Shown: positions 43,343-61,677, numbered from the stretch's first letter. The stretch is DNA of 64,000 nt from a virus (IMGVR_UViG_3300025867_000005), one strand, 5' to 3'. Translations and numbers: made by a program. The notes: a model not told the origin generated them from the sequence alone.

Positions 43343-43589
43343 ATTTATTTTGATATTTGTGAAATGTTTGCGCGAAGAATCTATAATGTGTTAGGAGACG
43401 GAATGAAAGAAACGACAAATAGGATAAACTTGATTACAGGGCGAAAACCCTATAGTCGTTTTTTGTCTAATGGAGGCAAACGAAACTAACCGTTAAGAGA
43501 AAGTTTTAGATTTTTAATGGAAGACACTTGACGGGAGTTAAAGAAACTGTTAAAGTGTCTTTTGTTTTCTACGAGAAGAAGTTGTTTTT

Positions 43590-43797: not shown

Positions 43798-43864
43798 GAT
43801 AAGTTGAAGTACCTTTACGTGGTTTCTGGTATAGGGTCGCTTGCGATTCTCGAAATCTTCAACA
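43798..43864 (+). repeat. 67-bp dispersed repeat, copy 1
   Basis: 62/67 identical to 47574-47640. Confidence 0.9.
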
Positions 43865-43988: not shown

Positions 43989-44020
43989 GTTGCGTCCCCT
44001 GCGGGCGCATGAATTGAAAC
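43989..44020 (+). CRISPR. solitary type I-C-like CRISPR repeat unit 1
   Basis: GTTGCGTCCCCTGCGGGCGCATGAATTGAAAC (32 nt). Confidence 0.75.
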
Positions 44021-44130
44021 CGACGCAGACTAAGAATCTGTGGCTGCCGAAAGGCAGCGGTTAATTTTGACAATTGAATAAGTTCTTGAATTCACACAGG
44101 TTCCCTTAAATGGATTCTTGTGTGAAATTT

Positions 44131-44205
44131 GCGGGTGTATCTCAAAGGCTAGAGACTCAGTTTACCAAACTGATTATGAGAGTTCAATTCTCTTCTCCCG
44201 CTCCA
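44131..44205 (+). tRNA. trnG: tRNA-Gly(ACC)
   Basis: GCGGG acceptor, TCAGT-TTACCAA-ACTGA, U73-CCA. Confidence 0.85.
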
Positions 44206-44380
44206 GATGGGTCCAATCGCCCCATGATTGGTAGCCAGTTCACATGACTGGTTTGCAGCGATATCAGATGTATGGATTTCAGTAGGAGCCTCAGTGTGAC
44301 CGCAATGAAATCCAGGCATTGAAGTATTGGAATCTGTTTTAGAAAAAATCATGGCAGTAACCTCTGTGTAAAAGGTAAAT

Positions 44381-44479
44381 AGTAGAATAGGCCAAATTGG
44401 TAGGGCAGTTGACTGTTACTCAACCCAAGACAATCTTAACCGATTGTGTGTGCAGGTTCGAATCCTGCTTCTACTGCCA
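44381..44479 (+). tRNA. trnN: tRNA-Asn(GTT) with 27-nt variable arm
   Basis: GTTGA-CTGTTAC-TCAAC; G73-CCA. Confidence 0.8.
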
Positions 44480-44488
44480 TTTTAAGAA

Positions 44489-44565
44489 CGGCGCGTGGGT
44501 CAACTTGGTAGACCGCTTGATTCGGGTTCAAGAATTTGCTGGTTCAAATCCAGTCGCGCCGACCA
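44489..44565 (+). tRNA. trnP: tRNA-Pro(CGG)
   Basis: CTTGA-TTCGGGT-TCAAG; C1-G72; ACCA. Confidence 0.9.
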
Positions 44566-44612
44566 TGTTTGAACGGGTTTGAAGAAAATGAAAAAAATCT
44601 TCAGTATCCCTA

Positions 44613-44862
44613 TTGACAACATGCCGTGGATTTAGTAAGATGTGCGGCGTTGAAAGGACAAGTAGGGAAACCAAAAATCCTGACAACAAATGTTCTTTGA
44701 GAGATGAAATGATGGTTCTGAATAGGTCAGAAGGAAGCGATGCTATGACGGTGGCAACCCAATGGCTAAAACGCGGCCAGATACGGTTCGATTCCGTGAT
44801 TCAGAAAAATCAGAAAAATTTTTCGAAGACCACTTGACAGACGGCGGCGGTTTTGCTAAAGT
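44613..44862 (+). promoter_or_regulatory. tandem sigma70 promoters with GC-rich discriminators and a boxA-like site
   Basis: TTGACA-17-TAAGAT-GTGCGGCG (44613); TGTTCTTTGAGA (44691); TTGACA-17-TAAAGT-CTGCGG (44834). Confidence 0.7.
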
Positions 44863-45351
44863 CTGCGGTGTTGAAGAGAAAAAGGCAAAAAGCGGTTTGA
44901 CGCCGCGCCCTGCGGAAAAGTTCAGAAATGAACTGGGGTAAAAATTGACAACTGAATACGATTTGAAAAAGAGTCTCTGAAGACCGGCCTGAATGAAAAG
45001 CTCAGGAAATGGGAACAAATCCCGCCCGGAAAAAAGAGACTTATCGCCATGCCGCCTTAAAACGGTATGGACTGGTTGATGAATCCAAGATTCCGTTCCC
45101 TTAAAGGAATGTTGAGTCAAGTGAAGTCAATCAAGAATTTCTGAAAACAGGCGGTGTCTGCCTGACCCTATTTAATAGTAGGGTGAAAGGACTCGGGCGT
45201 TAGTTCTGTGTTCAATCCGTAGCGCTTCCTTGAGAAGTGTATAACGTGTTGAAAGGTGTTAATCTTAGAAATCAGATTCACAGGGTCTGATGGAGATGTC
45301 GGTTGCCAGACTTGTGTGGCAATTAAAAAGCACCGCTGAACGCCAAATCTT

Positions 45352-45440
45352 GAGGGTATGGAGTAATTGGTTAACTCGCCAGGTTTTCATCCTGGAAACG
45401 CACTGCGCTTGTGCGGGTTCGAATCCCGCTACCCTTGCCA
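45352..45440 (+). tRNA. trnE: tRNA-Glu(TTC) with long variable arm
   Basis: CCAGG-TTTTCAT-CCTGG; 17-nt V region; GCCA. Confidence 0.85.
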
Positions 45441-45615
45441 TCTTTCGATGCGAATATCGGACAGACAATTTTGAAAATCTTAAGAAGGTAGATTCATGGT
45501 TCGACGGAATTGTGAATCCTGACCTAACAGGGATAGATTCTACGTGGTGTATGGTGCACACTGGCCCCCTCAAACGGGCCGGGGGACAACGTTCAAGTCG
45601 TTGACGGAAGAACAA

Positions 45616-45646
45616 GTTTGTGTCTGCAAAGACGCATAAGTGAAAT
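45616..45646 (+). CRISPR. divergent solitary repeat-like unit 5
   Basis: GTTTGTGTCTGCAAAGACGCATAAGTGAAAT (31 nt). Confidence 0.45.
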
Positions 45647-45677
45647 CCCCTACAACTTTACCCCTGAACAGGGGAAT

Positions 45678-45753
45678 GCATCGGTAGTTCAATTGGTAGA
45701 ACGATGGACTTCCACTCCGTAGGTTGCCGGTTCAAGCCCGGTCCGATGCTCCA
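45678..45753 (+). tRNA. trnG: tRNA-Gly(TCC)
   Basis: ATGGA-CTTCCAC-TCCGT; TCCA. Confidence 0.9.
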
Positions 45754-45754
45754 T

Positions 45755-45783
45755 GTTGCACAAGTTTGTGTATGAATTGAAAT
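45755..45783 (+). CRISPR. solitary type I-C-like repeat unit 2
   Basis: GTTGCACAAGTTTGTGTATGAATTGAAAT (29 nt), 1 nt after the tRNA CCA. Confidence 0.6.
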
Positions 45784-45827
45784 AAATAGCGGTATATCAG
45801 TTAGTAGATAGTTTCCATGATTTTTAT

Positions 45828-45903
45828 AGGAGTGTCGTATAGATGGTTTTTACGGATGTCTGATAAACATCTTAAGAGGGTTCGACTCCCTCCACTCCTA
45901 CCA
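45828..45903 (+). tRNA. trnI: tRNA-Ile(GAT)
   Basis: GATGT-CTGATAA-ACATC; ACCA. Confidence 0.88.
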
Positions 45904-46014
45904 TTTGTCGGAATTAGAACTGTCGTGAAATTCACATTGATCAGTGAAAAGTAATTCTGGAGCCGCATAGACAGTTATATACCCCCTCGGTCAAAGGGTA
46001 CGACAATTAATTTT

Positions 46015-46090
46015 GGGGCTGTCGTCTAAGAGGAAGGACATAGGGCTGAAAATCCTACGGTGATGGTTTCGAGTACCTCTGGCCCCACCA
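46015..46090 (+). tRNA. trnF: tRNA-Phe(GAA)
   Basis: TAGGG-CTGAAAA-TCCTA; ACCA. Confidence 0.83.
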
Positions 46091-46188
46091 ATTTAAAGCT
46101 GAATAGCAACGTATCCAAGCCGTTGTGCCCGTCCCTTCTTTTGGAAGGTAATGATATGCGGTTGAAATCCGAAGCTTGGCCGATTTAC

Positions 46189-46308
46189 GGGGATGTGGCG
46201 CAATGGCAAACACGGGTTGTATCCTAACAGCTTAGGTCGTGCGGAACAGCCTGTTGTCTAAATCCAAATTACGACAACTTGTATGTTCGAATCCTGCCTT
46301 CCCCATCA
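46189..46308 (+). ncRNA. tRNA-like RNA (Arg-CCT-like) with two extra helices in the variable region
   Basis: GGGGATG/CTTCCCC acceptor, GTTCGAATC T-loop, irregular anticodon loop, ends ATCA. Confidence 0.5.
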
Positions 46309-46315
46309 TTTTTTA

Positions 46316-46479
46316 CGGGACGAAGTAAAACGGAAAGGTCTCGGATCAATTGATCCCGAACACATGTCAGACTGGTAAGCGCAACCGAATTGACTTCGGG
46401 TTTATTTTCCGATAAAAGACTATAACACCAAGGAATGGTGCCTTGGAAATATTTGGTTCGACTCCAAAAGTCCCGACCA
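46316..46479 (+). ncRNA. tRNA-like RNA with a large insertion in place of the D arm (copy A)
   Basis: CGGGAC/GTCCCG-ACCA, T arm TTTGG-TTCGACT-CCAAA. Confidence 0.6.
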
Positions 46480-46591
46480 ACATCTGTTTCTAATTAATTC
46501 AGAGAAAACATTGAACAGCCGTGGGCTCTGTTTAATCTCAATCGGTGAGTTTACCTAATGCGGTAAAAGTCCGTGGCCTCCTCCGTTTTAT

Positions 46592-46680
46592 TGATAGGTG
46601 CGGAGAATGGTATTCCAGTTGGCTGTTAACCAACCGTCCCGCAAGGGCAATCGCTGGTTCGAATCCAGTCCTATCAGCCA
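46592..46680 (+). tRNA. trnN: tRNA-Asn(GTT) no. 2 with long variable arm
   Basis: GTTGG-CTGTTAA-CCAAC; V arm CCC-GCAA-GGG; GCCA. Confidence 0.85.
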
Positions 46681-46688
46681 TTTTTTAT

Positions 46689-46821
46689 GCAGTAGGAGTA
46701 AAACGTAAAGTCGGTTCTGGAAACCTCTGGGTTCGTTCGATGTCGTGCCCAGTCAAGGAACTGATATAACACCTCCAAACGAAGGAGGAGATATCTGGTT
46801 AGACTCCAGTCTACTGTACCA
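46689..46821 (+). ncRNA. tRNA-like RNA with a large insertion in place of the D arm (copy B)
   Basis: GCAGTAG/CTACTGT-ACCA, T arm CTGG-TTAGACT-CCAG. Confidence 0.6.
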
Positions 46822-46847
46822 TTGCTGCGACTTGTAGCATAAGAATT

Positions 46848-47196
46848 TCTGGCGTAGCTTAAGCCTTACCCAAACAAAACAGTCCCTATGTCAGGGATAT
46901 GATGTTTGTAAAACAAGGGATAGACCTTGGGTTTAAATTGAAAGGGTGTGGCCACATCTTTTTAAGGAAAACCCAAATAAGGGAACGTGTTTGAAATCCC
47001 CTTGGGGAAAAAACAACTGCGATGATGCAGTAAGATGATAAGGAAGAAGAGATAGACGGTTTGCATTTGACATACTGGTGTAATCTGGTTAGCACGGCCC
47101 TGATAGAGGGGGAGGTCCGGGTTCAAATCCCTAGTGTCGCTAGATGCGGGCTGGAACAAGATTGAAATCCTCTGAAGGTACTTATCCGCCAGACCA
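46848..47196 (+). ncRNA. candidate ~350-nt CCA-ended RNA with an embedded degenerate tRNA domain (47069-47142)
   Basis: TCTGGCG/CGCCAGA closing stem plus CCA; internal D arm and GGTTCAAATCC. Confidence 0.4.
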
Positions 47197-47198
47197 AT

Positions 47199-47493
47199 TT
47201 TACCTGCTTCTCAGAAGTTATAGGGTTCTGTTTTGAAACATAAGAATATCAATTTGTTTAGCGGATATCCCTTATGAAAAGGAAGTCTTATGATTCTGAG
47301 GATATTCATTCCCATTTCGTTTATGGAGAGTGCTGGTGAAAGACGCATAGGAAAGGACAATTGGAAGGGATTCACGACTTGCGATATGCCTATGCGCCTT
47401 AAAGTGAATATGCGTTGTCATTCAGTCGGATGTCAATGTGAACTATTTACGGCTCATATCCTTTGGCGGATGCCTTAATCCGTGGAAGGTAAA
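47199..47493 (+). ncRNA. candidate ~295-nt structured RNA
   Basis: TTTACCT/AGGTAAA, CTCAGAA/TTCTGAG, CATAAGA/TCTTATG, ATATTCATT/AGTGAATAT, CGCATAGG/CCTATGCG. Confidence 0.5.
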
Positions 47494-47494
47494 T

Positions 47495-47568
47495 GGGGAT
47501 GTATCTCAATTGGACAGAGTGTGTGGCTTCTAACCACAAGGTTGCGGGTTCGACTCCCGCTTTCCCCA
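47495..47568 (+). tRNA. trnR: tRNA-Arg(TCT), no encoded CCA
   Basis: TGTGG-CTTCTAA-CCACA; GGTTCGACTCC. Confidence 0.87.
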
Positions 47569-47573
47569 CGGGT

Positions 47574-47640
47574 GATAAGTTGAAGTACCTTTACGTGGTT
47601 TCACCTATAGAGTCACTTGCGATTCTCGAAATCTTCAACA
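47574..47640 (+). repeat. 67-bp dispersed repeat, copy 2
   Basis: 62/67 identical to 43798-43864. Confidence 0.9.
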
Positions 47641-48286
47641 AAATGATATCTTGGATAATTTTTAAGAATTTCATAGCTTTCCCTTCTTTAAAGTGTTGGA
47701 AAGTTGAAACATCAATAATACAAAGTTCTATATTTCGTTCGTGACAAGCTTGGCATTTCCTGTTGTCATTGTTTTGAATTTTGGAAAGCTTATCTTCACC
47801 GTAGATAGGTTCGTAATGAAAGATACCATTTAGTTCGAAAGCAAGTTTCAAAGAAGGAATGTAGATATCTAGTTCTGAATTGATAGCGTCCTTCCTATTG
47901 AAGTGGAATTCAAGATTTGGGTAAAGGATCGGCAACTTCGTTTCCAACCACCTTTCAAGCTTAGATATTTTTGTTCCTTTTGTTTTATGCATGTTATTAT
48001 AGGTTGCTGAACAAGATTGACTGCAAAAATGGTGTTTGGATTTCTTGATGCGCGAAATTTGTATCTTAAATTTTTTACTACATTGTTCGCAGTTGATAAA
48101 AATTGGAGGATGAACAGATTGACCGAAACAGATAAGAGAACAATATTCAGAAGTTTCACCTTTTTTTGTATTTTGAATCCTGTGTTTTTCTTTGTAGAAA
48201 GTTTTACCGCAATGTTTACATTGTAACGGTAGTAGTTGACGTGATTTAGCTGCTTGGAATTCTTCTTCGGTAAAAAGTGGTATCAT
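47591..48286 (-). CDS. Zn-finger plus Vsr/DUF559-like putative homing endonuclease
   Basis: CxxC..YCS..C repeats; ELDIYIP..LAFELNGIFHY; AGGAGG RBS. Confidence 0.8.
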   Translation of the reverse strand: MIPLFTEEEFQAAKSRQLLPLQCKHCGKTFYKEKHRIQNTKKGETSEYCSLICFGQSVHPPIFINCEQCSKKFKIQISRIKKSKHHFCSQSCSATYNNMHKTKGTKISKLERWLETKLPILYPNLEFHFNRKDAINSELDIYIPSLKLAFELNGIFHYEPIYGEDKLSKIQNNDNRKCQACHERNIELCIIDVSTFQHFKEGKAMKFLKIIQDIILLKISRIASDSIGETT

Positions 48287-48329
48287 AATCTATTCCTCCT
48301 ACATATGGAATGAATATCGAAGAACAATT

Positions 48330-48352
48330 TTCGACTCTCGCCTTCCCCACCA
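48330..48352 (+). pseudogene. displaced duplicate 3' end of tRNA-Arg with CCA
   Basis: TTCGACTCTCGCCTTCCCCACCA; 19/21 match to 47549-47569. Confidence 0.8.
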
Positions 48353-48632
48353 ATAACCGAGAAGGGTCAGCAAACTTCAAAATAATGAAGGCTGGAAAAA
48401 ATAGACGGCATAGGACATGGTTCGATTCCCTTAGCCTTGGTAGGATGTCCGGATTGCTGGAACTTATGTGAAATCACCTTCTCGATGCTTTCAAACATCC
48501 CCTTTGAGTCAGAAAAATCAGCGGGATGTTTTCAAATAAGCCTTGTGACTTCTACAAATTTATCTGACAAGTTTCTGTTTGTCACAGGGAAGATCGGAAA
48601 CTTCCGACACGGGGATGAAAAGCCCCGAATAT

Positions 48633-48709
48633 GCTTGTGTAGCGCAACTGGATAACGCATCTGGCTCTTACCCAGAGGATTGCGGGATCGTTCCCCGCCA
48701 CAAGTACCA
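48633..48709 (+). tRNA. trnK: tRNA-Lys(CTT)
   Basis: TCTGG-CTCTTAC-CCAGA; ACCA. Confidence 0.87.
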
Positions 48710-48721
48710 TTTTTTTTAAGA

Positions 48722-48811
48722 GGGGGTTGTTCTTTACGGAGGTCTGTAAAACCTTTGCCGTTATTATGTAAAGCGGTTCGGCAGATAGTTCGACTCTATC
48801 AGCCCCCACCA
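48722..48811 (+). tRNA. trnY: D-armless tRNA-Tyr(GTA)
   Basis: GGGGGTT/AGCCCCC-ACCA; GAGGT-CTGTAAA-ACCTT; only ~10 nt in place of the D arm; 28-nt V arm. Confidence 0.75.
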
Positions 48812-48925
48812 ATTTTGCCGAGTTCCTACCTGAAACCTGCCGCTTCAACAACCGGTTACAGAAAACCTTGATTTTCGCACGTCAAGGATTTTGTGAAGGG
48901 AAAGCGTTAGGGAAAACGGTGAATC

Positions 48926-49002
48926 GCCCCTGTAACTCAATTGGCTAGAGGCTCTGACTCGTAATCAGAAAGTTGTCAGATCATACCTGACCGGGGGCTC
49001 CA
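48926..49002 (+). tRNA. trnT: tRNA-Thr(CGT)
   Basis: TCTGA-CTCGTAA-TCAGA; TCCA. Confidence 0.85.
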
Positions 49003-49099
49003 TTTTTAGGATTAACATTGCGAGAGGTTTAAATCACGCCGGACACATGTTCCGGAGTTGTCGGTATCCAATCCGTTTTCCCGCAAACACTTTAGAATG

Positions 49100-49174
49100 G
49101 GGGGTATAGCTCAATGGCTAGAGCTCCACGCTTACATCGTGGCTATAGGAGTTCGATTCTCTTTACCCCCACCA
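49100..49174 (+). tRNA. trnV: tRNA-Val(TAC)
   Basis: CCACG-CTTACAT-CGTGG; ACCA. Confidence 0.9.
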
Positions 49175-49492
49175 TGTTTAAGAATGCTTTAGAATGGGAG
49201 AAAGGTCGGGTAGAAAAGTCCCAAGTCTCACAGCCAATTTCGGTTAGATTCCTATTTGAATGTGCTTTTGAAAAAGTGATTCAGGATATGGATCTTTCCG
49301 ACCAGTTTGACAGACAAGAGATGTTGAAAAACACGCCTATGGAATAGACCTACTACGAGAACGGCTATTATGTAGGAAGGAAGAAACCCCGTGAAGCAAC
49401 ATGGGGATAGTGCCTGGTGGCTTAACCACCATCCCCGTAAAGGGTATAACGTAGATAAGCGGCACCACTTGTTTTTGTCTGTCAGATTTTAT

Positions 49493-49615
49493 GGGGTCCC
49501 TGTTTTCCAAACACTGGTACTGATTAAACACTAATTATCAGGAAACGGCTTGCGGATGGTAACGCAGGTGTTCTACGGAACTAGAGAATGGTGAAAATCC
49601 GTTCGGTCCCCACCA
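49493..49615 (+). ncRNA. CCA-ended tRNA-like RNA (123 nt) without a recognisable anticodon arm
   Basis: GGGGTCC/GGTCCCC-ACCA; T-like arm GAATGG-TGAAAAT-CCGTTC. Confidence 0.5.
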
Positions 49616-49636
49616 CTTTTAAGGTTTATTTTTCAT

Positions 49637-49711
49637 GCCTGCGTCGTCTACTGGCTAGGACATTAGATTCTCAATCTAATAAAGACGGATCGATACCGTT
49701 CGCAGGTGCCA
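49637..49711 (+). tRNA. trnE: tRNA-Glu(CTC)
   Basis: TTAGA-TTCTCAA-TCTAA; GCCA. Confidence 0.88.
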
Positions 49712-49742
49712 GAGGGGGAAGATTTTGGTTTTGAAGACGAAT

Positions 49743-49832
49743 GAGAGTTTGGGTGAAATGAATTAGCCAACGGTCTGCAAAACCGTAAAACACAGAAATG
49801 TGATGAGGGTTTAAGTCCCTCAACTCTCTCCA
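49743..49832 (+). tRNA. trnC: tRNA-Cys(GCA) with long variable arm
   Basis: ACGGT-CTGCAAA-ACCGT; 18-nt V region; U73-CCA. Confidence 0.83.
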
Positions 49833-49842
49833 TTTTTTAGAT

Positions 49843-49917
49843 AGGGATATGATGTAACTAGTAGCATGAAAATCTCCAAAATTTTCTGTCCAGACGCGAA
49901 TTCTGGTATCCCTGCCA
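49843..49917 (+). tRNA. trnW: tRNA-Trp(CCA)
   Basis: AAAAT-CTCCAAA-ATTTT; GCCA. Confidence 0.85.
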
Positions 49918-50209
49918 CACAAAGGAAACTACGACGCGCTACAAACTGAAGCCGAGAAGCCTAAGATGCGCTAAGTACGATCAAGGGGTGAGACGATTCT
50001 TGATTTGCGCAAGAGATAGAAAAGTCAACGTACCCTAGTTTCCCTGATTTACTAAAAAAAGATTAGCGGAAAACTATCAAGAACCACTTGACACAGAAGC
50101 AGAGGTTTGATACAGTGTTTGTGTTTGAGAAATTCTAGGTGCTGTAAGCAAGTCCTTATTAGGACTGTGAAGCCCGAATAGACCTTTGAAAACTGAATGT
50201 GATTTAAAT

Positions 50210-50289
50210 GGTGGAATGGCCGGAAACTCTTTTTCGGGGCTCCGATTTAATGGGGCTTAATGTTGGGGAAGATCCAATATCCACTACCA
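50210..50289 (+). ncRNA. degenerate CCA-ended tRNA-like RNA
   Basis: GGTGGA/TCCACT-ACCA cloverleaf with non-canonical loops. Confidence 0.45.
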
Positions 50290-50325
50290 ATTTATGTCGA
50301 TTTATGTTAATTTATGTCGATTTAT

Positions 50326-50405
50326 TGCGGTAGGGATTAAGGTAAGGTTTACCTAATGAGGCTCATAACCTTGTAACCAGAGATCGTTCCTCTGCGCCGC
50401 ATCCA
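50326..50405 (+). tRNA. trnM: tRNA-Met(CAT), initiator-like
   Basis: TGCGG/CCGCA acceptor; GAGG-CTCATAA-CCTT; TCCA. Confidence 0.75.
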
Positions 50406-50412
50406 ATTTTAA

Positions 50413-50445
50413 GTTGTGCTATTCGAATAGCACATGAATTGAAAC
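50413..50445 (+). CRISPR. solitary type I-C-like repeat unit 3
   Basis: GTTGTGCTATTCGAATAGCACATGAATTGAAAC (33 nt). Confidence 0.65.
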
Positions 50446-50458
50446 ATCACGGGACAAT

Positions 50459-51462
50459 GGGAATATGGAATAACGGCTAGTTCACCTCACTTAACCATTT
50501 CAATAGTTAAATATTCTGCCATTTTGTTTGATAATTATAATCCGTGTAGAGGAGACGTATGATACCACTTTACACCGAAGAAGAATTTAACAAGGCTAAA
50601 TCAAGAGATTTACTTCCCAACCAATGTAAAAATTGCGGGAAGATTTTCTTTAGAGAAAAACACAATATAATGTTTTACATTAATAATGGAGGTGGAGATT
50701 TTTGTTCAATTTCTTGTTCTTTTAAATTCAATAACCCACTGATTGAAGTTGTTTGTCATACATGTGGAAAATCATTTAAGAAGAAAAAACTTGATGCAGA
50801 TAAAGAAGAACGGCATTTTTGTAGTAGAAGTTGTGCTAATAAATATTCTTCAAATATCAATAAAGAACAAAAGACTTTAAACCAAAAGAAATGGGCAAAT
50901 TCAGAAGAAGGAAAAAATTTTTTAACTAAAACAAGCAAATTGGCATGTATTAAAAGTATAGAAATTAGAAAACTTAAATGGAAAATGAATAAATGTCCGG
51001 TTTGTGGTAAAGAGTTTAGGGTAATGTTTAAACATAAGAAATACTGTTCGGCAACTTGTTATAATAAAATATCTGGTGGTATAAAAAGGGGGTCTAGTAG
51101 AGGTAAGCATGGTTGGTATAAGGGATACTGGTGTGATTCTTCTTGGGAACTTGCTTGGGTGATTTACAACCTTGATCATGGGATTAAGTTTGAAAGGAAT
51201 CATCAAGGTTTTGAATACGAATTTGAAGGAAAGAAACATAAATACTATCCAGATTTCATTTTAGAAGATGGAACTTACGTTGAAATTAAATCTGTTATGG
51301 ATGAAAAGAACAAAGCTAAAATTGCTTCGTTCCCAACTTCAATTAAAGTTTTACAGCATAAAGAGATTAAAATATTCATAGACCATGCGATTAAAATCTA
51401 TGGTAAAAATTTCATCTCATTATATGAGGAAGGTCTGGGTTCGAATCCCGGTATTCTCGCCA
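50459..51462 (+). pseudogene. tRNA (probably Asp) split in the anticodon loop by an endonuclease gene; halves at 50459-50491 and 51423-51462
   Basis: GGGAATA/TATTCTC-GCCA acceptor, GAAT/GTTC D stem, CCTCA/TGAGG anticodon stem, CTGGG-TTCGAAT-CCCGG T arm. Confidence 0.8.
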
Positions 51463-51476
51463 ACGCCTTGACATAG
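50559..51476 (+). CDS. Zn-finger plus TnsA-like PD-(D/E)XK putative homing endonuclease
   Basis: three CxxC..CS..C units; DSSWE..YYPDF..YVEIK. Confidence 0.82.
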   Translation: MIPLYTEEEFNKAKSRDLLPNQCKNCGKIFFREKHNIMFYINNGGGDFCSISCSFKFNNPLIEVVCHTCGKSFKKKKLDADKEERHFCSRSCANKYSSNINKEQKTLNQKKWANSEEGKNFLTKTSKLACIKSIEIRKLKWKMNKCPVCGKEFRVMFKHKKYCSATCYNKISGGIKRGSSRGKHGWYKGYWCDSSWELAWVIYNLDHGIKFERNHQGFEYEFEGKKHKYYPDFILEDGTYVEIKSVMDEKNKAKIASFPTSIKVLQHKEIKIFIDHAIKIYGKNFISLYEEGLGSNPGILANALT

Positions 51477-51540
51477 CTTAAGCGTAAAGCCCCGACATTG
51501 TAGTCGGGAGATGAAGCCTAACGAACTTCTGACTCGGCCA
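51465..51540 (+). pseudogene. degenerate tRNA (Thr-TGT-like)
   Basis: TAGCTT/AAGC D arm, CCCGAC-ATTGTA-GTCGGG; poor acceptor stem and T loop. Confidence 0.4.
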
Positions 51541-51684
51541 ATTTGTCCCATGTCCTGAACAAAGGGATAACAGGACTTAATTACGTTTCTGCTGGCAGAG
51601 CCGATAAAGATCCACCCCGGAAGTGCAGAAAGTAAGGGACAAACTTTTTGATATCAGATTCTATTAATGTAACAAGGGTTTTAT

Positions 51685-52173
51685 ATGTCTAGGAAAAGAA
51701 CATGGACTGATGAAGATTTTACTAAGGCGGCTTCTGTTTCTACTTCTGTTCGAGATCTTCTAAAAAAGATAGGATTACATCCAACTGGAGCAAACTATAA
51801 AACGGTTTGGGCAACTGTCAGGCGTTTAGGAATAAATACCAAACATTGGGTCGGGAGTGGCCATCTTAAAGGTAAAACACATAATTGGTCTAAGTGTCTA
51901 CCTTTCGAAGAGATTTTGATAAAAGATTCGCATTATAGAGGTAGTACTTCTCGGTTAAAATCTAGACTAATAAAAAACGGAAAGCTTTTAAATAAGTGTT
52001 ATGAATGTGGACAAGAACCTTTATGGAAAGGAAAGATTTTAGTTCACGTTCTTGACCATATTAATGGCGACAATACAGATAATAGAATCGAAAACCTTAG
52101 ATTGTTGTGTCCGAATTGTAATAGTCAAACAGAAACTTTTGCTGGGAAGAATAGAAAGTTTGTTCATTGTTAA
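51685..52173 (+). CDS. HNH homing endonuclease
   Basis: CYECG..LDHINGDNTDNRIENLRLLCPNCNSQT. Confidence 0.9.
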   Translation: MSRKRTWTDEDFTKAASVSTSVRDLLKKIGLHPTGANYKTVWATVRRLGINTKHWVGSGHLKGKTHNWSKCLPFEEILIKDSHYRGSTSRLKSRLIKNGKLLNKCYECGQEPLWKGKILVHVLDHINGDNTDNRIENLRLLCPNCNSQTETFAGKNRKFVHC

Positions 52174-52175
52174 TA

Positions 52176-52265
52176 CGTGCCGTATCCCAACTGGCTGGAG
52201 GAGCGGGACTCAAAATCCCGTGGACGGAAGTCCCACTGTGGGTTCGAATCCCACCGGCACGACCA
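52176..52265 (+). tRNA. trnL: tRNA-Leu(CAA)
   Basis: CGGGA-CTCAAAA-TCCCG; long V arm; ACCA. Confidence 0.9.
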
Positions 52266-52272
52266 TTTTAAA

Positions 52273-52308
52273 CAGGGTGTAGCTCAATCTGGCTAGAGCG
52301 CGTGATTT
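52273..52308 (+). pseudogene. orphan 5' half of a tRNA-Pro-like gene
   Basis: CAGGGTG-TA-GCTC-AATCTGGCTA-GAGC-G-CGTGA-TT then unrelated sequence. Confidence 0.65.
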
Positions 52309-52341
52309 TTATCATTCCTAAATCTTAAGGGCAGTATTTAT

Positions 52342-52427
52342 CTGTGTGTAGTCCGTAATTTGGTAGCGGGTCGGCTTTGGGAGCCGGAGCGAAAGTCTTG
52401 TAGGTTCAAATCCTATCACACAGACCA
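52342..52427 (+). tRNA. trnP: tRNA-Pro(TGG) with extended variable arm
   Basis: TCGGC-TTTGGGA-GCCGG; 12-nt V region; ACCA. Confidence 0.83.
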
Positions 52428-52496
52428 CTGTCGGCTATGGATAAGCTTCCTTCTATACTTTTATGGAAAAACCAGCTTTCCGCTTTCCGACACTTT

Positions 52497-52573
52497 CGAG
52501 GTATATTTCAATTGGTTAGAAGAACGGTCTCATAATCCGTTAGTTGAAGGTTCGACTCCTTCTACCTCGACCA
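52497..52573 (+). tRNA. tRNA-Met/Ile2(CAT)
   Basis: ACGGT-CTCATAA-TCCGT; ACCA. Confidence 0.85.
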
Positions 52574-52639
52574 ATTTTCACTTCAACTTAGTAACGCCAA
52601 AAGAAGAAATGTACGGCTTCTTGAGAAGAAGTGAATTAT

Positions 52640-52716
52640 GCTCCTGTGGCGCAATTGGCAGTCGCGTCTGGCTAAGGACCAGATTGTTGGGGATTCGAAT
52701 TCCTCCAGGAGCACCA
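52640..52716 (+). tRNA. trnL: tRNA-Leu(AAG) with short variable loop
   Basis: TCTGG-CTAAGGA-CCAGA; 5-nt V loop; ACCA. Confidence 0.83.
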
Positions 52717-52841
52717 TTTTTATTACAGGTAGTGAGAAATAGGAATCTCCATAAACCAATGAATAATTTTTCAAGACCTGTTGACGGAAGTAATCCGTTG
52801 TGGTATTTTATCTTTATCGAAAGCAAGAAAGGGATAAAACC

Positions 52842-53243
52842 ATGACAGTTAAACAGCTAGTTAGTCGTTTCAAAAAGATCAAGAAACTTGATTTGTCGAA
52901 GATTGCTTTTGAACAGCACACAAAGAGTGAGCTCGATGTATGTTTCGTTATTGACGGAAGCATTAAACGTCTGAGGATTTTCTATGTTGGTGAATATCAG
53001 TTTGATTGGTGGAAACCACAATTCGAAGAATTTGTGAAGACGGGTAAATTTGATTTTTCAACGTATCACGAAATCTATGGAAATGGGACTCACCCATCAG
53101 ATGTCGGTGTCGCGATTCGGGTTCCGATGATTCTTGAAAACGGTGTTTATGTTGAAGATTCGAAGAAAACGTTGGAATTGGTTGGTGAATATCGCAGAAC
53201 GATTAACTATGAAGTCGGTATTCGTCGCATCGCAAAAAAGTAA
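52842..53243 (+). CDS. hypothetical protein
   Basis: own promoter at 52781. Confidence 0.6.
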   Translation: MTVKQLVSRFKKIKKLDLSKIAFEQHTKSELDVCFVIDGSIKRLRIFYVGEYQFDWWKPQFEEFVKTGKFDFSTYHEIYGNGTHPSDVGVAIRVPMILENGVYVEDSKKTLELVGEYRRTINYEVGIRRIAKK

Positions 53244-53275
53244 AGAGAAACCTTGTGATAGCGGTTTCTGGAAAC

Positions 53276-53308
53276 GTGGTCGTAGCCTAATTGGATAGGC
53301 AACAGCTT
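53276..53308 (+). pseudogene. orphan 5' half of a tRNA (Arg-like D loop)
   Basis: GTGGTCG-TA-GCCT-AATTGGAT-AGGC-A-ACAGC-TT then a boxA-like site. Confidence 0.55.
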
Positions 53309-53331
53309 GTTCTTTGAAAAGTTAATTTTAT

Positions 53332-53406
53332 GGGGGTATACTATAATGGCTATTACGCCACACCTGCACTGTGGCAATCTCGGTTCGATTCCGAGTACCT
53401 CCACCA
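53332..53406 (+). tRNA. trnA: tRNA-Ala(TGC)
   Basis: G3:U70 pair; CCACA-CCTGCAC-TGTGG (C33); ACCA. Confidence 0.83.
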
Positions 53407-53434
53407 GTTTGGTTAACCCGTAAGGGTTTGTGAA

Positions 53435-53466
53435 GTTGCGCCATTTACGGGCGCATGAATTGAAAC
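53435..53466 (+). CRISPR. solitary type I-C-like repeat unit 4
   Basis: GTTGCGCCATTTACGGGCGCATGAATTGAAAC (32 nt). Confidence 0.75.
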
Positions 53467-53508
53467 ACGCGGCTCCATTCCTCTGTTACACTACGCGTAT
53501 ACACTAAT

Positions 53509-53681: not shown

Positions 53682-53791
53682 TCTGTGTGTTAGCGCGTCA
53701 AGTTGAGGGCGTGTCGCGGTTCAATTGTAAAAACTTGCGGTTTCCGGACTTTACTCCCGGACGAATGGAAGTTGCGTTCCAGACACACAGG
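53682..53791 (+). ncRNA. enlarged five-arm cloverleaf RNA
   Basis: CTGTGTGT/ACACACAG closing four hairpins. Confidence 0.45.
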
Positions 53792-56429: not shown

Positions 56430-59400
56430 GGCATGAGGTGTAACGGTTGCATTGCGAGGAAAAGGGAGGCTAAAAAATCGTGACGAAAACTGTAAGGCTG
56501 ACAGCGCCGCCCCGCTTTGGTACGCTTTGCCTATCAAAATATGCCGCAATGCGCTTGCGGTATCGAGTTTCAGGAATGCTTGAAGGCTTGACCGTCAAGG
56601 CAAGGGAGCGACATGAATCCGGTTGAACAGTATTTGAGTGACATGGGGGCGATTCGCTCGACTGGCGCGGGAACCGTGGAAACGTCCTACTACACCGCGC
56701 TTTCCACGCTCTTGAACGAGATCGGCAAGAAGCCAAGCCCGAAAGTCCGTTGCGTTATCCAGCTTCAGAACAAAGGCGCGGGCATGCCTGACGGCGGCAT
56801 GTTCACCGCCGACCAGTTCAGAGGCAAAGCCGCCAAAGAGGACGCCGGGGCGAACCCGCTCAAAACCCTCCCGCCTTCCCGTGGCGTGATCGAAGTCAAA
56901 TCCCCCGCCGAGGACATGGCGGACATCATCGAAAGCGAGCAAATCGCCCGCTATTGGGATCACTACGGCCTTGTTCTGGTCACGAATTACCGCGCTTTCA
57001 CGCTGATCGGGCGCACGGCCACAGGTCACGCCGTGGAACTGGAAAGTTTCACGCTGGCCGCGACCGAGGCGGAATTCTGGAAACTGGCCGCGCACCCGCG
57101 CACCTGCCCCGCCGCCCTGCGCGAACGGTTCGCCGAATACCTATACCGCGCGATGACCCATAACGCCCCGCTGGCCTCGCCGCAGGACGTGGCCGCTATC
57201 CTCGCCTCCTATGCCCGTGACGCCAAGGCACGCATCGAACACGCCGACTTGCCCGCGCTGGCCGGATTGCGTGAAGCCCTGGAGCACGCCCTTGGTCTCA
57301 AATTCGAGGGCGATAAGGGCGAGCACTTCTTCCGCTCCACGCTGATTCAAACTCTCTTCTATGGCATTTTCTCAGCATGGGTGCTTTGGGCAAGGAAACG
57401 CAAGCCTGCCCCCGCCGCATCCGTCAAGGAAAAGAGCCTCAAATATGCGTTGAAAGAAACGGCAGCATCCTACCGCACGAACGCCAAGCAGTTTGAATGG
57501 CGTTCAGCCGTGTGGCTCCTGCGCGTGCCGATGATCCGCGCACTATTCGGGCAGATTGCCACGCCGGAACGTCTCGGCCCCTTGGGGCTGGAAGAAGTCC
57601 TCGACTGGGCCGCGTCCGCCCTGAACCGCGTGGACGGCGACGCGTTCTTCACCGCCTTTGACGAGGGGCACGCCGTCCAGTACTTCTATGAGCCGTTCCT
57701 GCAAGAGTTTGACCCCGAGTTGCGCAAAGACCTTGGCGTATGGTACACGCCGACCGAGATCGTTGAATATCAGGTTGAGCGCGTGGATACCGTCCTGCGC
57801 GAAGAGCTGCACATTGCCGACGGGCTGGCCGACCCGCGCGTGATCGTCCTTGACCCGTGCTGCGGCACCGGGGCCTATGTGCGTGCTGTGCTGAACCGCA
57901 TCGCCAAGACGCTAGACGCCAAAGGCGGCGACGCGTTGAACGCGCAAGAAGTAAAAACCGCAGCGCTTGAACGCGTGTTTGGCTTCGAGATCCTGCCCGC
58001 GCCGTTCGTTATCGCCCATCTGCAAATCGGTCTGTTGCTGGAAACGCTCGGCGCACCGCTCATAGAGTCAAAAGAGCCCGACAAGAAGGCTGAACGCGTC
58101 GGCGTATACCTGACCAACTCCCTGACCGGCTGGGAGCCGCCCAAGGAGAAGCCCAAGCAACTGCTCCTCATGCCCGAACTCGAACAGGAGCGCGACGCGG
58201 CCAACAACGTGAAACAGGGGAAGAAAATCATAGTCGTAATCGGCAACCCACCCTATAACGGTTTTGCGGGTGTCAGCCCCGAAGAGGAGAACGGGCTTGT
58301 AAATGCATATAAAGAAGGACTGAGTGATTGGGGCATAACCCGAAATTACCTCGATGACTTGTATGTGAGATTTTTCCGTTTGGCCGAAAAGCGTATTACC
58401 GAGCACAGTGGTTTGGGAGTTGTGTCCTTCATTTCAAACTTCTCCTACCTCTCTGAACAGTCTTATGTGATTATGCGTCGTCGTTTCCTTGAAGAGTTCG
58501 ACACACTCCGGTTCGACTGCCTTAACGGTGACAGTCGCGAGACTGGCAAACTGACACCGGATGGGAACCCCGACCCTTCAGTCTTCTCGACTCAATGGAA
58601 TCGTGAAGGTATTCGCGTTGGCACTGCCATCGGACTGATGGTCAAACACGATAATCGAAGTCAAAGCAAAGACAAGGCGAAAGTCTCGACTGAGCATGGG
58701 ACGGTTCGCTTCCGGCAATTCTGGGGAACGAAGAAACGCGAAGAACTACTTGCGAGCCTTGCATCCTCAAATTTTGATGCTCAATACGACATTTCAAGCC
58801 CCTCGCTTTCAAATCGTTGGAGTTTTCGACCGTCTGACGTTTCGGCCACATATTTGCAATGGTCCAACGTCGTTGATTTGAGTGCCGAGAAGCCTTTTCT
58901 TGGCTTAAACGAAAATAGAGGCGGCGATCTTCAGTGTATTGATAAGGATGCTTTACGGGCTAAGATTCAAGTCTACCTTGACCAAAATTTGTTGTGGGAT
59001 GAATATGTTTCACCTTCTGCTGCGCTAACAAAGCCTGCCGCTGGGTTCAAACCTGAAAGTGTAAGGAAAAAAGTTCAGGCAGAAGAGCCTTTCTCGGAGG
59101 ATCGCATTCAACGTTACTTGCGTAGACCATTCGATACTGTTTGGGCTTACATTTCGGACGTGAGCCCACTGTGGAATCGCTCTCGCCCCGAGTTGCGCAC
59201 ACACTTGGCGGGCAGCCAGAAGTGTTTCATAACACGTCCCTCATGTCCCGCTAATCCCGAGGGTATCCCAGTGCATATGACAAGGCTCGCAGGGGAGCAG
59301 GATTCAATACGTGGTCATGCGTACTATTTCCCTGTCAGACTGAAAAAGACCCAAAAGAAAAAAGTAGCCATGATGGGTGTGGAATCTGAAGAAGTGAAGC

Positions 59401-59730
59401 CCCGAAATGCGGAAGAGAAGTCTGACGAGTCCGCCAGAAGAGTATACCATAAACAGGAGGTACTCTTTGATGATGATGTTTCAACAGCCAACCTTTCCCC
59501 CGCCACGCTCTACTACCTCCCCGGCACATCCGGTTGGGACGCTCCCGCCGAACCGCTCCTCACATACGAACTCGTAAACGGAGAAATGACGATCACGGGC
59601 GTAGACTCCTTCTTCACAGGCAATTCTTTGCCTATCCCGGAAAATCTTGCAGGCTACCCCGTTACCTCCATCGGCGACTACGCATTTTCCGACTGTGCAT
59701 CCCTCACCTCTGTCAACATCCCCAGCGGCG
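56430..59730. other. GC-rich, probably host-derived insertion
   Basis: abrupt shift to G/C-ending codons relative to the AT-rich flanks. Confidence 0.75.
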
Positions 59731-59900
59731 GATATAGTGACAATATGGGATGGCATAAAACTCAGAGTCATAATGCCCTATACAGGATTAAAAAGGGTTC
59801 ATGGTACGGTAGTTGCCGGCCTCTTGTAGAATATCGTGGTGGCGTCAGTAGGAAACAAATGCTTGCGGATATCGAAAAGTTTTCAAAGAAAGGAAATTAA
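56613..59900 (+). CDS. chimeric Type IIG/ISP-like restriction-modification enzyme (truncated specificity domain) fused to a BspA-like LRR fragment and a phage-like tail
   Basis: PDG..IEVK nuclease, YFYE.FL..GVWYTP, LDPCCGTG, GNPPY; then TLYYLPGTSGW..VTSIGDYAFSDCASLTSVNIP. Confidence 0.8.
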   Translation: MNPVEQYLSDMGAIRSTGAGTVETSYYTALSTLLNEIGKKPSPKVRCVIQLQNKGAGMPDGGMFTADQFRGKAAKEDAGANPLKTLPPSRGVIEVKSPAEDMADIIESEQIARYWDHYGLVLVTNYRAFTLIGRTATGHAVELESFTLAATEAEFWKLAAHPRTCPAALRERFAEYLYRAMTHNAPLASPQDVAAILASYARDAKARIEHADLPALAGLREALEHALGLKFEGDKGEHFFRSTLIQTLFYGIFSAWVLWARKRKPAPAASVKEKSLKYALKETAASYRTNAKQFEWRSAVWLLRVPMIRALFGQIATPERLGPLGLEEVLDWAASALNRVDGDAFFTAFDEGHAVQYFYEPFLQEFDPELRKDLGVWYTPTEIVEYQVERVDTVLREELHIADGLADPRVIVLDPCCGTGAYVRAVLNRIAKTLDAKGGDALNAQEVKTAALERVFGFEILPAPFVIAHLQIGLLLETLGAPLIESKEPDKKAERVGVYLTNSLTGWEPPKEKPKQLLLMPELEQERDAANNVKQGKKIIVVIGNPPYNGFAGVSPEEENGLVNAYKEGLSDWGITRNYLDDLYVRFFRLAEKRITEHSGLGVVSFISNFSYLSEQSYVIMRRRFLEEFDTLRFDCLNGDSRETGKLTPDGNPDPSVFSTQWNREGIRVGTAIGLMVKHDNRSQSKDKAKVSTEHGTVRFRQFWGTKKREELLASLASSNFDAQYDISSPSLSNRWSFRPSDVSATYLQWSNVVDLSAEKPFLGLNENRGGDLQCIDKDALRAKIQVYLDQNLLWDEYVSPSAALTKPAAGFKPESVRKKVQAEEPFSEDRIQRYLRRPFDTVWAYISDVSPLWNRSRPELRTHLAGSQKCFITRPSCPANPEGIPVHMTRLAGEQDSIRGHAYYFPVRLKKTQKKKVAMMGVESEEVKPRNAEEKSDESARRVYHKQEVLFDDDVSTANLSPATLYYLPGTSGWDAPAEPLLTYELVNGEMTITGVDSFFTGNSLPIPENLAGYPVTSIGDYAFSDCASLTSVNIPSGGYSDNMGWHKTQSHNALYRIKKGSWYGSCRPLVEYRGGVSRKQMLADIEKFSKKGN

Positions 59901-60358: not shown

Positions 60359-60820
60359 ATGCGCAAGAACTTCATCAGGTGTGACGGCGGCAGACGGGCA
60401 GCTGGGTTTAAAGGCATAACATGCGATTGTGTATGCCGCAGTATCGCTATCGTTACCGGTCGGCCTTATCTTGAAGTCTACAATGAGCTGAAAGTCCTTT
60501 GCAAAAAAGAACGAAGGCTTAAAACGAAACGTCGGTCTAGTCATAGGACAGGGATTCATACCGGGCATAAATGGTTTCGAGATTGGATGGTTTCTAAAGG
60601 TTTCATTTGGGTTAAATCAAGAAGGGGAAAACTTAATTTCAGCCAAAATAATCTTCCGATGGGAAGACTAATCGTGTTTATTGCGGTTCATGTACATTAC
60701 GCAGCGGTTATCGACGGAATCGTGTATGACACATGGAATCAATATATGGATGATGATAACACCATCTCAGGATATTGGGAATTTGATAGAAAAGACGTAT
60801 GTAAAGGAGTTGATAAATGA
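60359..60820 (+). CDS. conserved phage protein, possible papain/C39-like Cys-His-Asp fold
   Basis: DCVCRSIAI...HYAAVIDG..YDTW. Confidence 0.45.
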   Translation: MRKNFIRCDGGRRAAGFKGITCDCVCRSIAIVTGRPYLEVYNELKVLCKKERRLKTKRRSSHRTGIHTGHKWFRDWMVSKGFIWVKSRRGKLNFSQNNLPMGRLIVFIAVHVHYAAVIDGIVYDTWNQYMDDDNTISGYWEFDRKDVCKGVDK

Positions 60821-61677
60821 ACTTTTCAATTGTGCCCGTACAAGAACAAAAACAAGGAAGGACAGATTTCTATCTGATCGCGGTTTCTCAAATAAACAGA
60901 AGAACGGCTTATCAGTATGTCCACGATCCTTTACACAAAAACAAACCTGAAGGAAGTGGTTGGGAATCTACCGATTCCGGATGGAGCAAAGACAAAGGAG
61001 ATCCTTCAGGCGCGAAAATGACATTCAGCCCGGAAGTAAATGTGCCGGTCTTCAACAAAGAAAAGACAGAAGAGAATATTAAAAACATGTCAGTCCACAT
61101 TTCTTCTGCGATTAAAGAAGTGCTCGGTAAAGAAGTAGGACACCGGCTTTCTTCACGTAAATCGGGTAGATATATGGAAGCGGGTGTTATTTATAAGGAA
61201 GCAAGTTTTTCTGTAGACATCAAAGACATTAATGAAGAACAGGCGGAGAAGATAGCTAGGAAAATAGCGGACAAGATGCAACAAAGTTCAGTCCTTGTTT
61301 TCAACAATGACACAAGAAAGGCGAATCTCGTATTCGCTTCCGGAAGAGAAAATGAAGATTTTGAGTTGACGCCGCAAAGCAAAGAATTTTTCCTAAAGTC
61401 TACCGGGAATAACAAACAGACGATTGATAAAATAGACGAAAGTGTCAGAGCTGCAATGGAAGGCAAGGTAACGGGTTGGACAACAAGGAAAATAAAACAG
61501 ACTAGCATCAGAATCGGGAAAGACAGTTACATCAATACAAGTCATGCCGTTTCTCTTCATGGAATTGAAGAAGAAGATGCAGAAAAAATTGCCAAGCACT
61601 TGACAACAACCTTTGGAACTGATATCCTTTGTGTTGATTTGAAAAACAGATCGAAGAAGATAATCAAGAAAGGTTAA
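60817..61677 (+). CDS. tandem SAM-lyase (T3 SAMase)-like protein with N-terminal YxxDPxHK motif
   Basis: GRYMEA..KEASF..QAEKIAR..QQSSVLVF..TRKANLVFASG. Confidence 0.6.
   Translation: MNFSIVPVQEQKQGRTDFYLIAVSQINRRTAYQYVHDPLHKNKPEGSGWESTDSGWSKDKGDPSGAKMTFSPEVNVPVFNKEKTEENIKNMSVHISSAIKEVLGKEVGHRLSSRKSGRYMEAGVIYKEASFSVDIKDINEEQAEKIARKIADKMQQSSVLVFNNDTRKANLVFASGRENEDFELTPQSKEFFLKSTGNNKQTIDKIDESVRAAMEGKVTGWTTRKIKQTSIRIGKDSYINTSHAVSLHGIEEEDAEKIAKHLTTTFGTDILCVDLKNRSKKIIKKG

Follow-up and report, generated by a model that had tools for sequence, protein, structure and literature searches.

Introduction

Single CRISPR repeats carried by viruses outside any array are an accepted form of phage counter-defence; how they are expressed, and why a phage should carry several of them, has been little studied. 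Solitary repeat units, or RNA anti-CRISPRs (Racrs), are already established, type I-C among them (PMC10651486), as are viral mini-arrays and regulators that resemble CRISPR RNAs (crRNAs) (PMC11656645; bioRxiv 10.1101/2024.10.29.618823). Here we describe four solitary repeat units in a 64,000-nucleotide (nt) stretch of the viral record IMGVR_UViG_3300025867_000005, hereafter the window, where they are dispersed through a block of transfer RNA (tRNA) genes. Each of the four is a lone copy of a type I-C-class repeat that the phage itself also has as a regular array elsewhere in its genome.

Like Racrs such as RacrIC1 (Camara-Wilpert et al. 2023, PMC10651486), each unit is a single non-coding viral repeat of a defined subtype lying outside an array, and the catalogue in that work likewise holds type I-C units with the tail ATGAATTGAAAT. 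Unlike Racrs, the units described here occur as four diversified copies in one genome, within a putative tRNA polycistron rather than behind a promoter of their own or an acr (anti-CRISPR) gene, and in a phage that also has a regular array of the same repeat; the main text of that paper does not use the word tRNA. Virus-borne mini-arrays and arrays lacking cas genes, directed against related viruses (PMC11656645), share a cas-associated repeat type with no effector cas gene found and a dependence on the Cas proteins of the host, a description that the phage's seven-repeat array fits, but the units differ from mini-arrays in having no second repeat and in being followed, where a spacer would stand, by the phage's own neighbouring sequence. 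Cracrs (bioRxiv 10.1101/2024.10.29.618823) differ from our units in being mini-arrays, some of whose spacer sequence corresponds to promoters of host cas or defence genes, and the word tRNA is absent from that text as well.

A literature search found no paper linking solitary repeats with phage tRNA operons, and the three works just cited are silent on such operons; a preliminary description of this locus, made from the sequence alone, had likewise known of no account of the arrangement. What is new is the placement in a tRNA polycistron, the presence of four to six stem-diversified copies per genome, the co-residence with a cas-less array of the same repeat and the documented gain and loss between sister lineages. 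The proposed release of non-tRNA RNA by tRNA-processing enzymes, out of a tRNA operon that is strongly expressed, has parallels in the species 1 and 2 RNAs of phage T4, in small RNAs derived from bacterial tRNA spacers and in synthetic arrays of tRNAs and guide RNAs (tRNA-gRNA arrays). To our knowledge, none of the natural small RNAs from tRNA precursors, whether T4 species 1 and 2 or the spacer-derived RNAs, contains a CRISPR repeat, and the tRNA-gRNA design is man-made.

Results

The window comes from a 304,025-bp viral record, of which it covers bases 148571-212570 and to which CheckV assigns 100% completeness. The public runs that hold the whole stretch are activated-sludge metagenomes, and the same phage, its units identical, was assembled independently in three samples. 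A dense block of tRNA genes occupies 43.5-55 kb on the + strand (ARAGORN finds 29 tRNAs in the window as a whole), and in it lie the four units, all on the + strand, at the positions given in the preliminary description and borne out both by direct inspection and by a covariance model: U1 (43989-44020, 32 nt; 47.4 bits, expectation value (E) 1.4e-8; predicted Cas5c cut between 44009 and 44010), U2 (45755-45783, 29 nt, with an AT-rich 6-bp stem; 35.2 bits, E 1e-5; predicted handle 45773-45783), U3 (50413-50445, 33 nt, with an 8-bp stem; 43.6 bits; predicted handle 50435-50445) and U4 (53435-53466, 32 nt, between tRNA-Ala and tRNA-Arg; 46.2 bits; predicted handle 53456-53466). The model, R1, has a 7-bp stem and was built from an alignment (A3) of the units with related repeats. 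Across the whole 304-kb genome it retrieved only the four units and the seven repeats of the array (E 5e-8 to 4e-5; next match E 1.5), and in the window, with filters off, the next match after the four units had an E of 0.75.

Each unit consists of a 2-nt 5' overhang, a stem of 6-9 bp and the 11-nt 3' tail UGAAUUGAAAC; the layout of U1 is 2+7+5+7+11 nt, U2 to U4 keep the same overhangs around stems of 6-9 bp, and the expected hairpin is present in the minimum-free-energy structure of every unit. The exact 12-mer ATGAATTGAAAY occurs four times in the 64 kb, always on the + strand and inside the tRNA block, against a chance expectation of about 0.015 (hand arithmetic for an exact 12-mer with one Y, both strands). 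The units are truly solitary, which for such elements means that no other repeat stands within about 100 bp, and all lie in non-coding DNA between tRNA genes: R1 detects no second unit near U1-U4, and the repeat-spacer-repeat layout of a mini-array does not occur. A fifth, more divergent unit had also been proposed at 45616-45646 (+ strand), where a hairpin is followed by TAAGTGAAAT; it folds well, yet R1 is blind to it even at E 10, and it is at best a decayed copy. Two further lines were abandoned. A scan of the genome for a hairpin plus tail with up to three tail mismatches gave hundreds of chance matches and was replaced by the covariance model, and a hairpin at 44041-44072, 20 nt 3' of U1, which has repeat-like proportions and could have made U1 a mini-array, scores as a terminator and not as a unit.

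The regular array lies 43 kb past the end of the window (G000:C1:256036-256463; L009:12037-12464) and comprises seven copies of GTTGCGCCCCGCAGGGGCGCATGAATTGAAAC with six spacers of 33-35 nt, behind a phage-type promoter; its leader motif is of the same type as the promoter-like site at 43528-43556 in the window. The units are identical to the array repeat in their first four and last twelve bases, and over their whole length U1 and U4 share about 84% identity with it, as counted by us from the alignment. U1 is also 1 nt off the array repeat of a related phage contig, L053, which is syntenic with the region after this phage's array and has a three-repeat array at the matching place. The earlier statement that the window contains neither cas genes nor a regular array holds, the array being outside it; of the earlier proposal that the units mimic a host repeat, the repeat class stands, but they are not only mimics, since they are solitary copies of the repeat in the phage's own array. 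Near the array we found no cas genes and no Rfam match, and six-frame searches of the whole 304-kb record revealed no Cas5d, Cas7/Csd2 or Csd1 even at E 1. With no Cas5d, Csd1 or Csd2 found in the phage, a host partner would be needed, and the reader of these repeats is most likely a host protein. In more distant relatives (L079:10430-10657 and L085:5540-6008), successive array repeats have different, internally compensated stems and the same tail. CRISPR array repeats are normally identical, and this stem variation is unusual.

The architecture of the units is that of type I-C repeats, which are about 32 nt long with a 2-nt 5' overhang, a stem of about 7 bp, a short loop (pentaloop) and an 11-nt single-stranded 3' tail (PMC8524198). 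The type I-C tail class, ...UG(G/A)AUUGAAA(C/U), is found beside cas3-cas5c-cas8c-cas7-cas4-cas1-cas2, and the units fit it; relative to the classical repeat (GTC...G|UGG), the phage version (GTT...A|UGA) has the closing pair changed on both sides and a handle that differs at one position. The tail UGAAUUGAAAC is identical in an array of the Anaerotruncus contig L027, which stands directly 3' of cas2 in a complete cas3-cas5d-csd1-csd2-cas4-cas1-cas2 operon, and the published catalogue of solitary repeat units types the tail ATGAATTGAAAT as I-C (PMC10651486). The type I-C assignment made in the preliminary description is thus supported by the sequence comparisons, with architecture, the L027 array beside a full operon and the published typing in agreement. 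When one genome per prokaryotic species was scanned for repeats with the tail, regular arrays appeared only in metagenome-assembled genomes (MAGs) of Oscillospirales; the two that were checked (G003 and G004) carry Cas5d. Like L027, the Provencibacterium genome has Cas5d. The exact stem of the phage repeat was found in no array among the bacterial species representatives in the collection. Contigs related to the phage were binned with MAGs of Paludibacteraceae and Omnitrophica, which is weak evidence as to the host, and the Paludibacteraceae MAG yielded no Cas5d.

As to their setting, U1 begins 16 nt 3' of tRNA-Lys, U2 begins 1 nt 3' of tRNA-Gly(tcc) and ends 44 nt 5' of tRNA-Ile, and U4 begins 28 nt 3' of tRNA-Ala and ends 42 nt 5' of tRNA-Arg. 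These ARAGORN calls agree with the distances first reported for U1, U2 and U4; for U3, the flanking tRNA-like elements are called by neither ARAGORN nor Rfam and consist of an acceptor pairing read by hand (GGGAATA/TATTCTC, between 50459 and 51452) around a 305-aa endonuclease open reading frame (ORF). In this hand reading, U3 lies 13 nt 5' of an apparent 5' tRNA half that is split by the endonuclease ORF. The apparent split tRNA spans 50459-51468, with its 5' half starting at 50459 and its T-arm and acceptor 3' strand at about 51433-51468; the ORF (50559-51476) lies inside it and overlaps its 3' half.

The tRNA block is interspersed with homing-endonuclease ORFs and with phage-type promoter-like sites (TTGAC-N17-TAAAGT). 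One such site on the + strand (TTGACG-N17-TAAAGT, 43528-43556) heads the block that ends in U1, a second (50088-50116, +) lies about 300 nt 5' of U3, and a third (52781-52809, +) precedes a 147-aa ORF, tRNA-Ala and U4. All units are thus on the tRNA strand and downstream of phage-type promoters. A terminator-like hairpin with a T-run follows 22 nt 3' of U1 (44043-44068, +), and from this arrangement U1 would sit at the 3' end of a Ser-Ser-Lys tRNA transcript. Three activated-sludge metatranscriptomes contain contigs 100% identical to parts of the tRNA block; no contig covers a unit, and assembled RNA contigs cannot show RNA ends, so that these data do not speak for or against expression of the units. 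At gathering thresholds, Rfam found only tRNAs in the window, with no match to a CRISPR-DR, ribozyme or intron family; relaxing the search of the tRNA block to E 0.5 added, with scores far short of the gathering level in every case, only three antisense tRNA matches to Plastid-ycf2 and a weak match to sX4. Comparison of the tRNA block with cultured phages yielded neither a relative nor a similar repeat.

For the tRNA block, only one other lineage was recovered, that of IMG/VR contig 3300014206_000056 and near-identical copies from other samples. The main relative lineage (L113/L119, L121-L124 and L129-L133) is called the relative below; short pieces (L125/L138 and L137) represent a further lineage, or two. 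In the relative, neighbouring proteins share 73-92% identity with those of the window. Relatives that are about 90% identical also occur in public runs from wastewater and landfill. Relatives sought through hsp20 provided only three usable lineages, and a search through an aldolase-like neighbour gene provided none. The relative has five units in its syntenic tRNA block and a partial sixth. Contig L119 opens with the tail ATTGAAAT, 3 nt 5' of its tRNA-Ile, which is the U2 ortholog, and a decayed copy of U4, read by eye, directly abuts the tRNA-Thr of the relative.

Comparison of the units across lineages confirmed the stem covariation that had been proposed. In a set of 18 sequences, 98.4% of cells pair and five of the seven pairs have changed on both sides, values well beyond those that shuffled and slid controls give. 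The stem core GCTATT/AATAGC is common to U3 and the relative's unit c, although the latter is shorter by two base pairs on both sides, and unit e shows a paired C:G to T:A change between L119 and L125. Because the pattern used to retrieve the database members of the 18-sequence set prescribes the tail, invariance of the tail is informative only where units of the two tRNA blocks are concerned. There, the second-lineage units keep the exact tail while their stems and flanks differ, and the picture is bimodal, a unit either being beyond recognition or having its tail perfect and its stem paired amid diverged surroundings, which is what selection on an RNA hairpin together with a sequence-specific single-stranded tail would predict.

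Judged from the alignments, units have been gained, lost or decayed between lineages. At the unit d site (51565-51623, +) the flanks are conserved and the unit is present in the relative and absent from the window. At the unit e site 5' of hsp20 (53709-53780, +) relatives carry the unit; neither the window nor L137 has a recognisable one, the window showing by eye repeat-like remnants that R1 does not detect. The unit a and b sites are occupied in the window by other sequence, in the case of unit a by a stretch of about 290 nt that is present in RNA contigs. We considered GTTGCGTT at 53778 as the 5' stump of a deleted unit, but the four-way alignment was too uncertain. Two tandem tail remnants (TGAATTGAAAC and AATTGAAAC) stand in L125:1252-1270, 12 nt 5' of unit e, and an old mini-array upstream of hsp20 is possible.

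The sequences that follow the units in the place of a spacer are, by alignment with relatives, local sequence and not acquired spacers. After U2, the stretch 45784-45827 (+) is the 5' half of an old tRNA-Ile(gat), as alignment with the relative's intact tRNA-Ile indicates, and the old 3' half has been overwritten by the present tRNA-Ile (45828-45903). After U4, the stretch 53467-53508 (+) consists of the last 11 nt of a deleted tRNA-Thr(cgt), retained in L119, and a conserved 31-nt spacer before tRNA-Arg(acg). The 44 and 42 nt that separate U2 and U4 from the next tRNA thus exist because the tRNA that once abutted each unit is dead or deleted. In the relative, unit a lies 13 nt 5' of tRNA-Arg and the U2 ortholog 3 nt 5' of tRNA-Ile. 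Across all units the distance to the next tRNA ranges from 0 to 110 nt, lengths of 33-35 nt are not favoured, and units that stand 3, 13 and 13 nt ahead of tRNA 5' ends leave no room for a 34-nt guide.

Targets were sought for every unit tail and for each of the six array spacers in the phage genome and all retrieved loci, and for array spacer 1 in IMG/VR with every sixth base left free; only self and syntenic matches came back. The array had no target in cultured phages. In the unit-less alleles of four junctions, the preceding trinucleotide is TTC, CTC, TCC or TTA. Each of the four junctions where homology permits the comparison differs from TTC by no more than one change (background 0.166 per site, against 2% for TTC itself), a test that comprises four sites only, picked post hoc, with matches that follow from synteny. 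The tail of the relative's unit d is identical at 32 of 34 positions to window 51590-51623, with TTC (51587-51589) directly upstream, and the U4 tail is identical at 29 of 34 positions to the relative, with CTC upstream; two of the four sister matches have 7-9 mismatches.

Several other features of the tRNA block and its surroundings are worth recording. Two non-tRNA stretches, 46845-47195 and 47219-47491, are matched at 100% by contigs of the three activated-sludge metatranscriptomes, the second match ending a few bases 5' of tRNA-Arg(tct); both are candidate stable non-coding RNAs and have no Rfam match. An element of about 67 nt, also without an Rfam match, is repeated at 43798-43864 and 47574-47641, directly 3' of tRNA-Ser(cga) and tRNA-Arg(tct). 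The tRNA-Arg(tct) gene is split by an 810-bp insertion (47520-48329) with a minus-strand zinc-finger/HNH-like endonuclease ORF (47591-48286) and is uninterrupted in a wastewater relative (joint 47519 to 48330). An HNH endonuclease ORF at 51685-52173 is likewise absent from a wastewater relative (joint 51674 to 52262). Just 3' of the tRNA block lie a 1095-aa protein resembling type IIG/ISP methyltransferase-restriction enzymes (56613-59900) and a 286-aa protein (60817-61677) with a precomputed match to S-adenosylmethionine (S-AdoMet) lyase and a possible anti-restriction function.

Discussion

In type I-C systems, Cascade (the CRISPR-associated complex for antiviral defence) is nucleated by Cas5c and the first Cas7 (Cas7.7), which clamp the crRNA at its 5' handle, and the crRNA in the complex lacks a 3' stem-loop (PMC7684278). 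Any transcript with a hairpin and handle should therefore capture Cas5c. RacrIC1, a solitary I-C repeat, inhibits type I-C (PMC10651486). At a little less than an even chance, we favour the view that the units are Racr-type decoys which would be freed by tRNA processing and bind host Cas5c; we rank it first because it fits every unit and because a type I-C solitary repeat offers a precedent for inhibition. Under such circumstances, the units would be kept by selection within polycistronic tRNA transcripts driven by the phage promoters of the block, and excision of the tRNAs by ribonuclease P (RNase P) and the tRNA 3'-end enzymes would free short inter-tRNA RNAs comprising the hairpin, the handle and little more. 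Host Cas5c would then bind the base of the hairpin and the UGA... handle that follows. Several units are followed by only 0-13 nt before the next tRNA, or by junk sequence: where 0-13 nt are left after the RNase P cut, only a stub complex could form, and where 40 nt or more are left, a complete complex could arise, either with no target or directed at the syntenic site in relatives. The Cas5c so bound, together with Cas7, would be trapped in complexes that are dead ends or lack a target and would compete with the crRNAs of the host much as a Racr does, and the diversified stems could prevent the recombination between copies that would delete the intervening tRNAs. We infer that the units would be transcribed with the tRNAs, released by tRNA processing and bound by Cas5c with an effect on immunity; by analogy with RacrIC1, an anti-CRISPR function is plausible.

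Several considerations weigh against decoys. That the phage has kept the units' repeat as a seven-copy array implies productive use of host I-C proteins; an array retained without Cas5d, Csd1 or Csd2 makes pure inhibition of the host system less obvious, and decoys would also starve the phage's own array. Blocking the assembly of new Cascade gains a lytic phage little when loaded complexes already exist. The decoy reading presumes a matching host I-C system and presumes that the units are expressed as RNA, and Pfam and PHROGs searches of the small neighbouring ORFs revealed no recognisable acr gene. Finally, the trinucleotides TTC, CTC, TCC and TTA at the junctions hint that the units are linked to places where a protospacer-adjacent motif (PAM) meets a protospacer, which a pure decoy would not predict.

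Alternatively, one could envision the units as single-repeat guide genes, each cut by Cas5c so that about 34 nt of the phage's own sequence would serve as the spacer, with the 3' end set by RNase P at the tRNA that follows. The repeat, standing in the PAM position, would spare its carrier, unit-less sisters in a co-infection would be cut by host Cascade-Cas3, and the units would act with the phage's array in inter-phage warfare. We regard this as unlikely but keep it as a serious rival because of the phage's own array, the 42-44 nt available at U2 and U4 and the PAM-like junctions. One repeat could suffice, as the crRNA is held by its 5' handle and has no 3' stem-loop in the complex (PMC7684278), and the phage lineage retains arrays in the absence of any Cas5d, Csd1 or Csd2. 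The next tRNA is 44 nt away from U2 and 42 nt away from U4, the tails of unit d (32/34, with TTC) and U4 (29/34, with CTC) match sister alleles, and four of four testable junctions are within one change of TTC where the background is 0.166 per site. However, the junctions are only four, chosen post hoc, and their matches are explained by synteny; three units stand 3-13 nt before functional tRNAs and U1 stands 22 nt before a terminator, where no full guide would fit; two of the four sister matches have 7-9 mismatches; and searches with the tails gave no target beyond the relatives. More doubtful still is the stronger version of the idea, in which giant phages would plant repeats in tRNA operons as selfish guide genes and unit-less sisters would be destroyed or converted. 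For this the window's TTC-flanked site 51587-51623, matched at 32 of 34 positions by the relative's unit d, could serve as an example. With the repeat replacing the PAM and so sparing the carrier, this would amount to a system of marker exclusion or drive, based on CRISPR and dependent on proteins borrowed from the host, a proposal to which we give a low weight.

The PAM-like junctions are also predicted if the units are captured repeats, and they therefore do not decide between the readings. Recombination with an array of the host or of the phage itself, across a match between spacer and protospacer, would replace the PAM and allow escape from targeting, leaving scars with little function today. 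Besides the PAM-like trinucleotides at the junctions of unit-less alleles, such a history would agree with the coming and going of units between lineages and with the single nucleotide that separates U1 from the array repeat of a related phage, and different source arrays could explain the different stems. Scars should decay evenly, however, whereas here the flanks diverge around intact units that have a flawless 11-nt tail and a paired stem, and other copies have decayed completely; the short AT-rich stems of U2 and of units a-c of L119 are unlike natural I-C repeats, and orthologous units differ by paired changes. We consider capture improbable.

We give rather little credence to the idea that a phage protein so far unrecognised, such as a divergent Cas5/Cas6-like RNase or another RNA-binding protein, reads the units as processing or stabilising sites in the tRNA precursor and the array transcript. 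The repeat does belong to the phage itself, most of the 304 kb has no annotation and the exact stem is in no array of the bacterial species representatives in the collection, but Cas5d, Cas7/Csd2 and Csd1 did not turn up in the six-frame searches even at E 1, and bona fide host I-C arrays have exactly this tail. Least probable of all is a Cas-independent signal of the tRNA operon recruited from a CRISPR repeat (a leader or trailer hairpin for processing by RNase P/E/Z, stability or antitermination), for although the units are always in inter-tRNA spacers, often directly 5' of a tRNA, in a block rich in other folded modules and stable RNAs, most tRNAs of the block have no unit, the invariant single-stranded tail is the handle recognised by Cas5c and needless for a generic processing hairpin, and the same repeat forms a regular array with spacers of 33-35 nt.

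Regardless of how the units act, this giant-phage lineage combines a cas-less array with multiple stem-diversified repeats in what would be the RNA operon that a phage transcribes most heavily and processes with the greatest precision. Sites that have a unit in one lineage and lack it in another, with PAM-like junctions, offer a testable handle on whether the units are decoys, guides or escape scars. If the decoy or guide reading is true, tRNA operons would be a natural delivery platform for anti-CRISPR or guide RNAs, on the same principle as engineered tRNA-gRNA arrays, and it would pay to screen large phages for RNA-based modulators of immunity in their tRNA islands.

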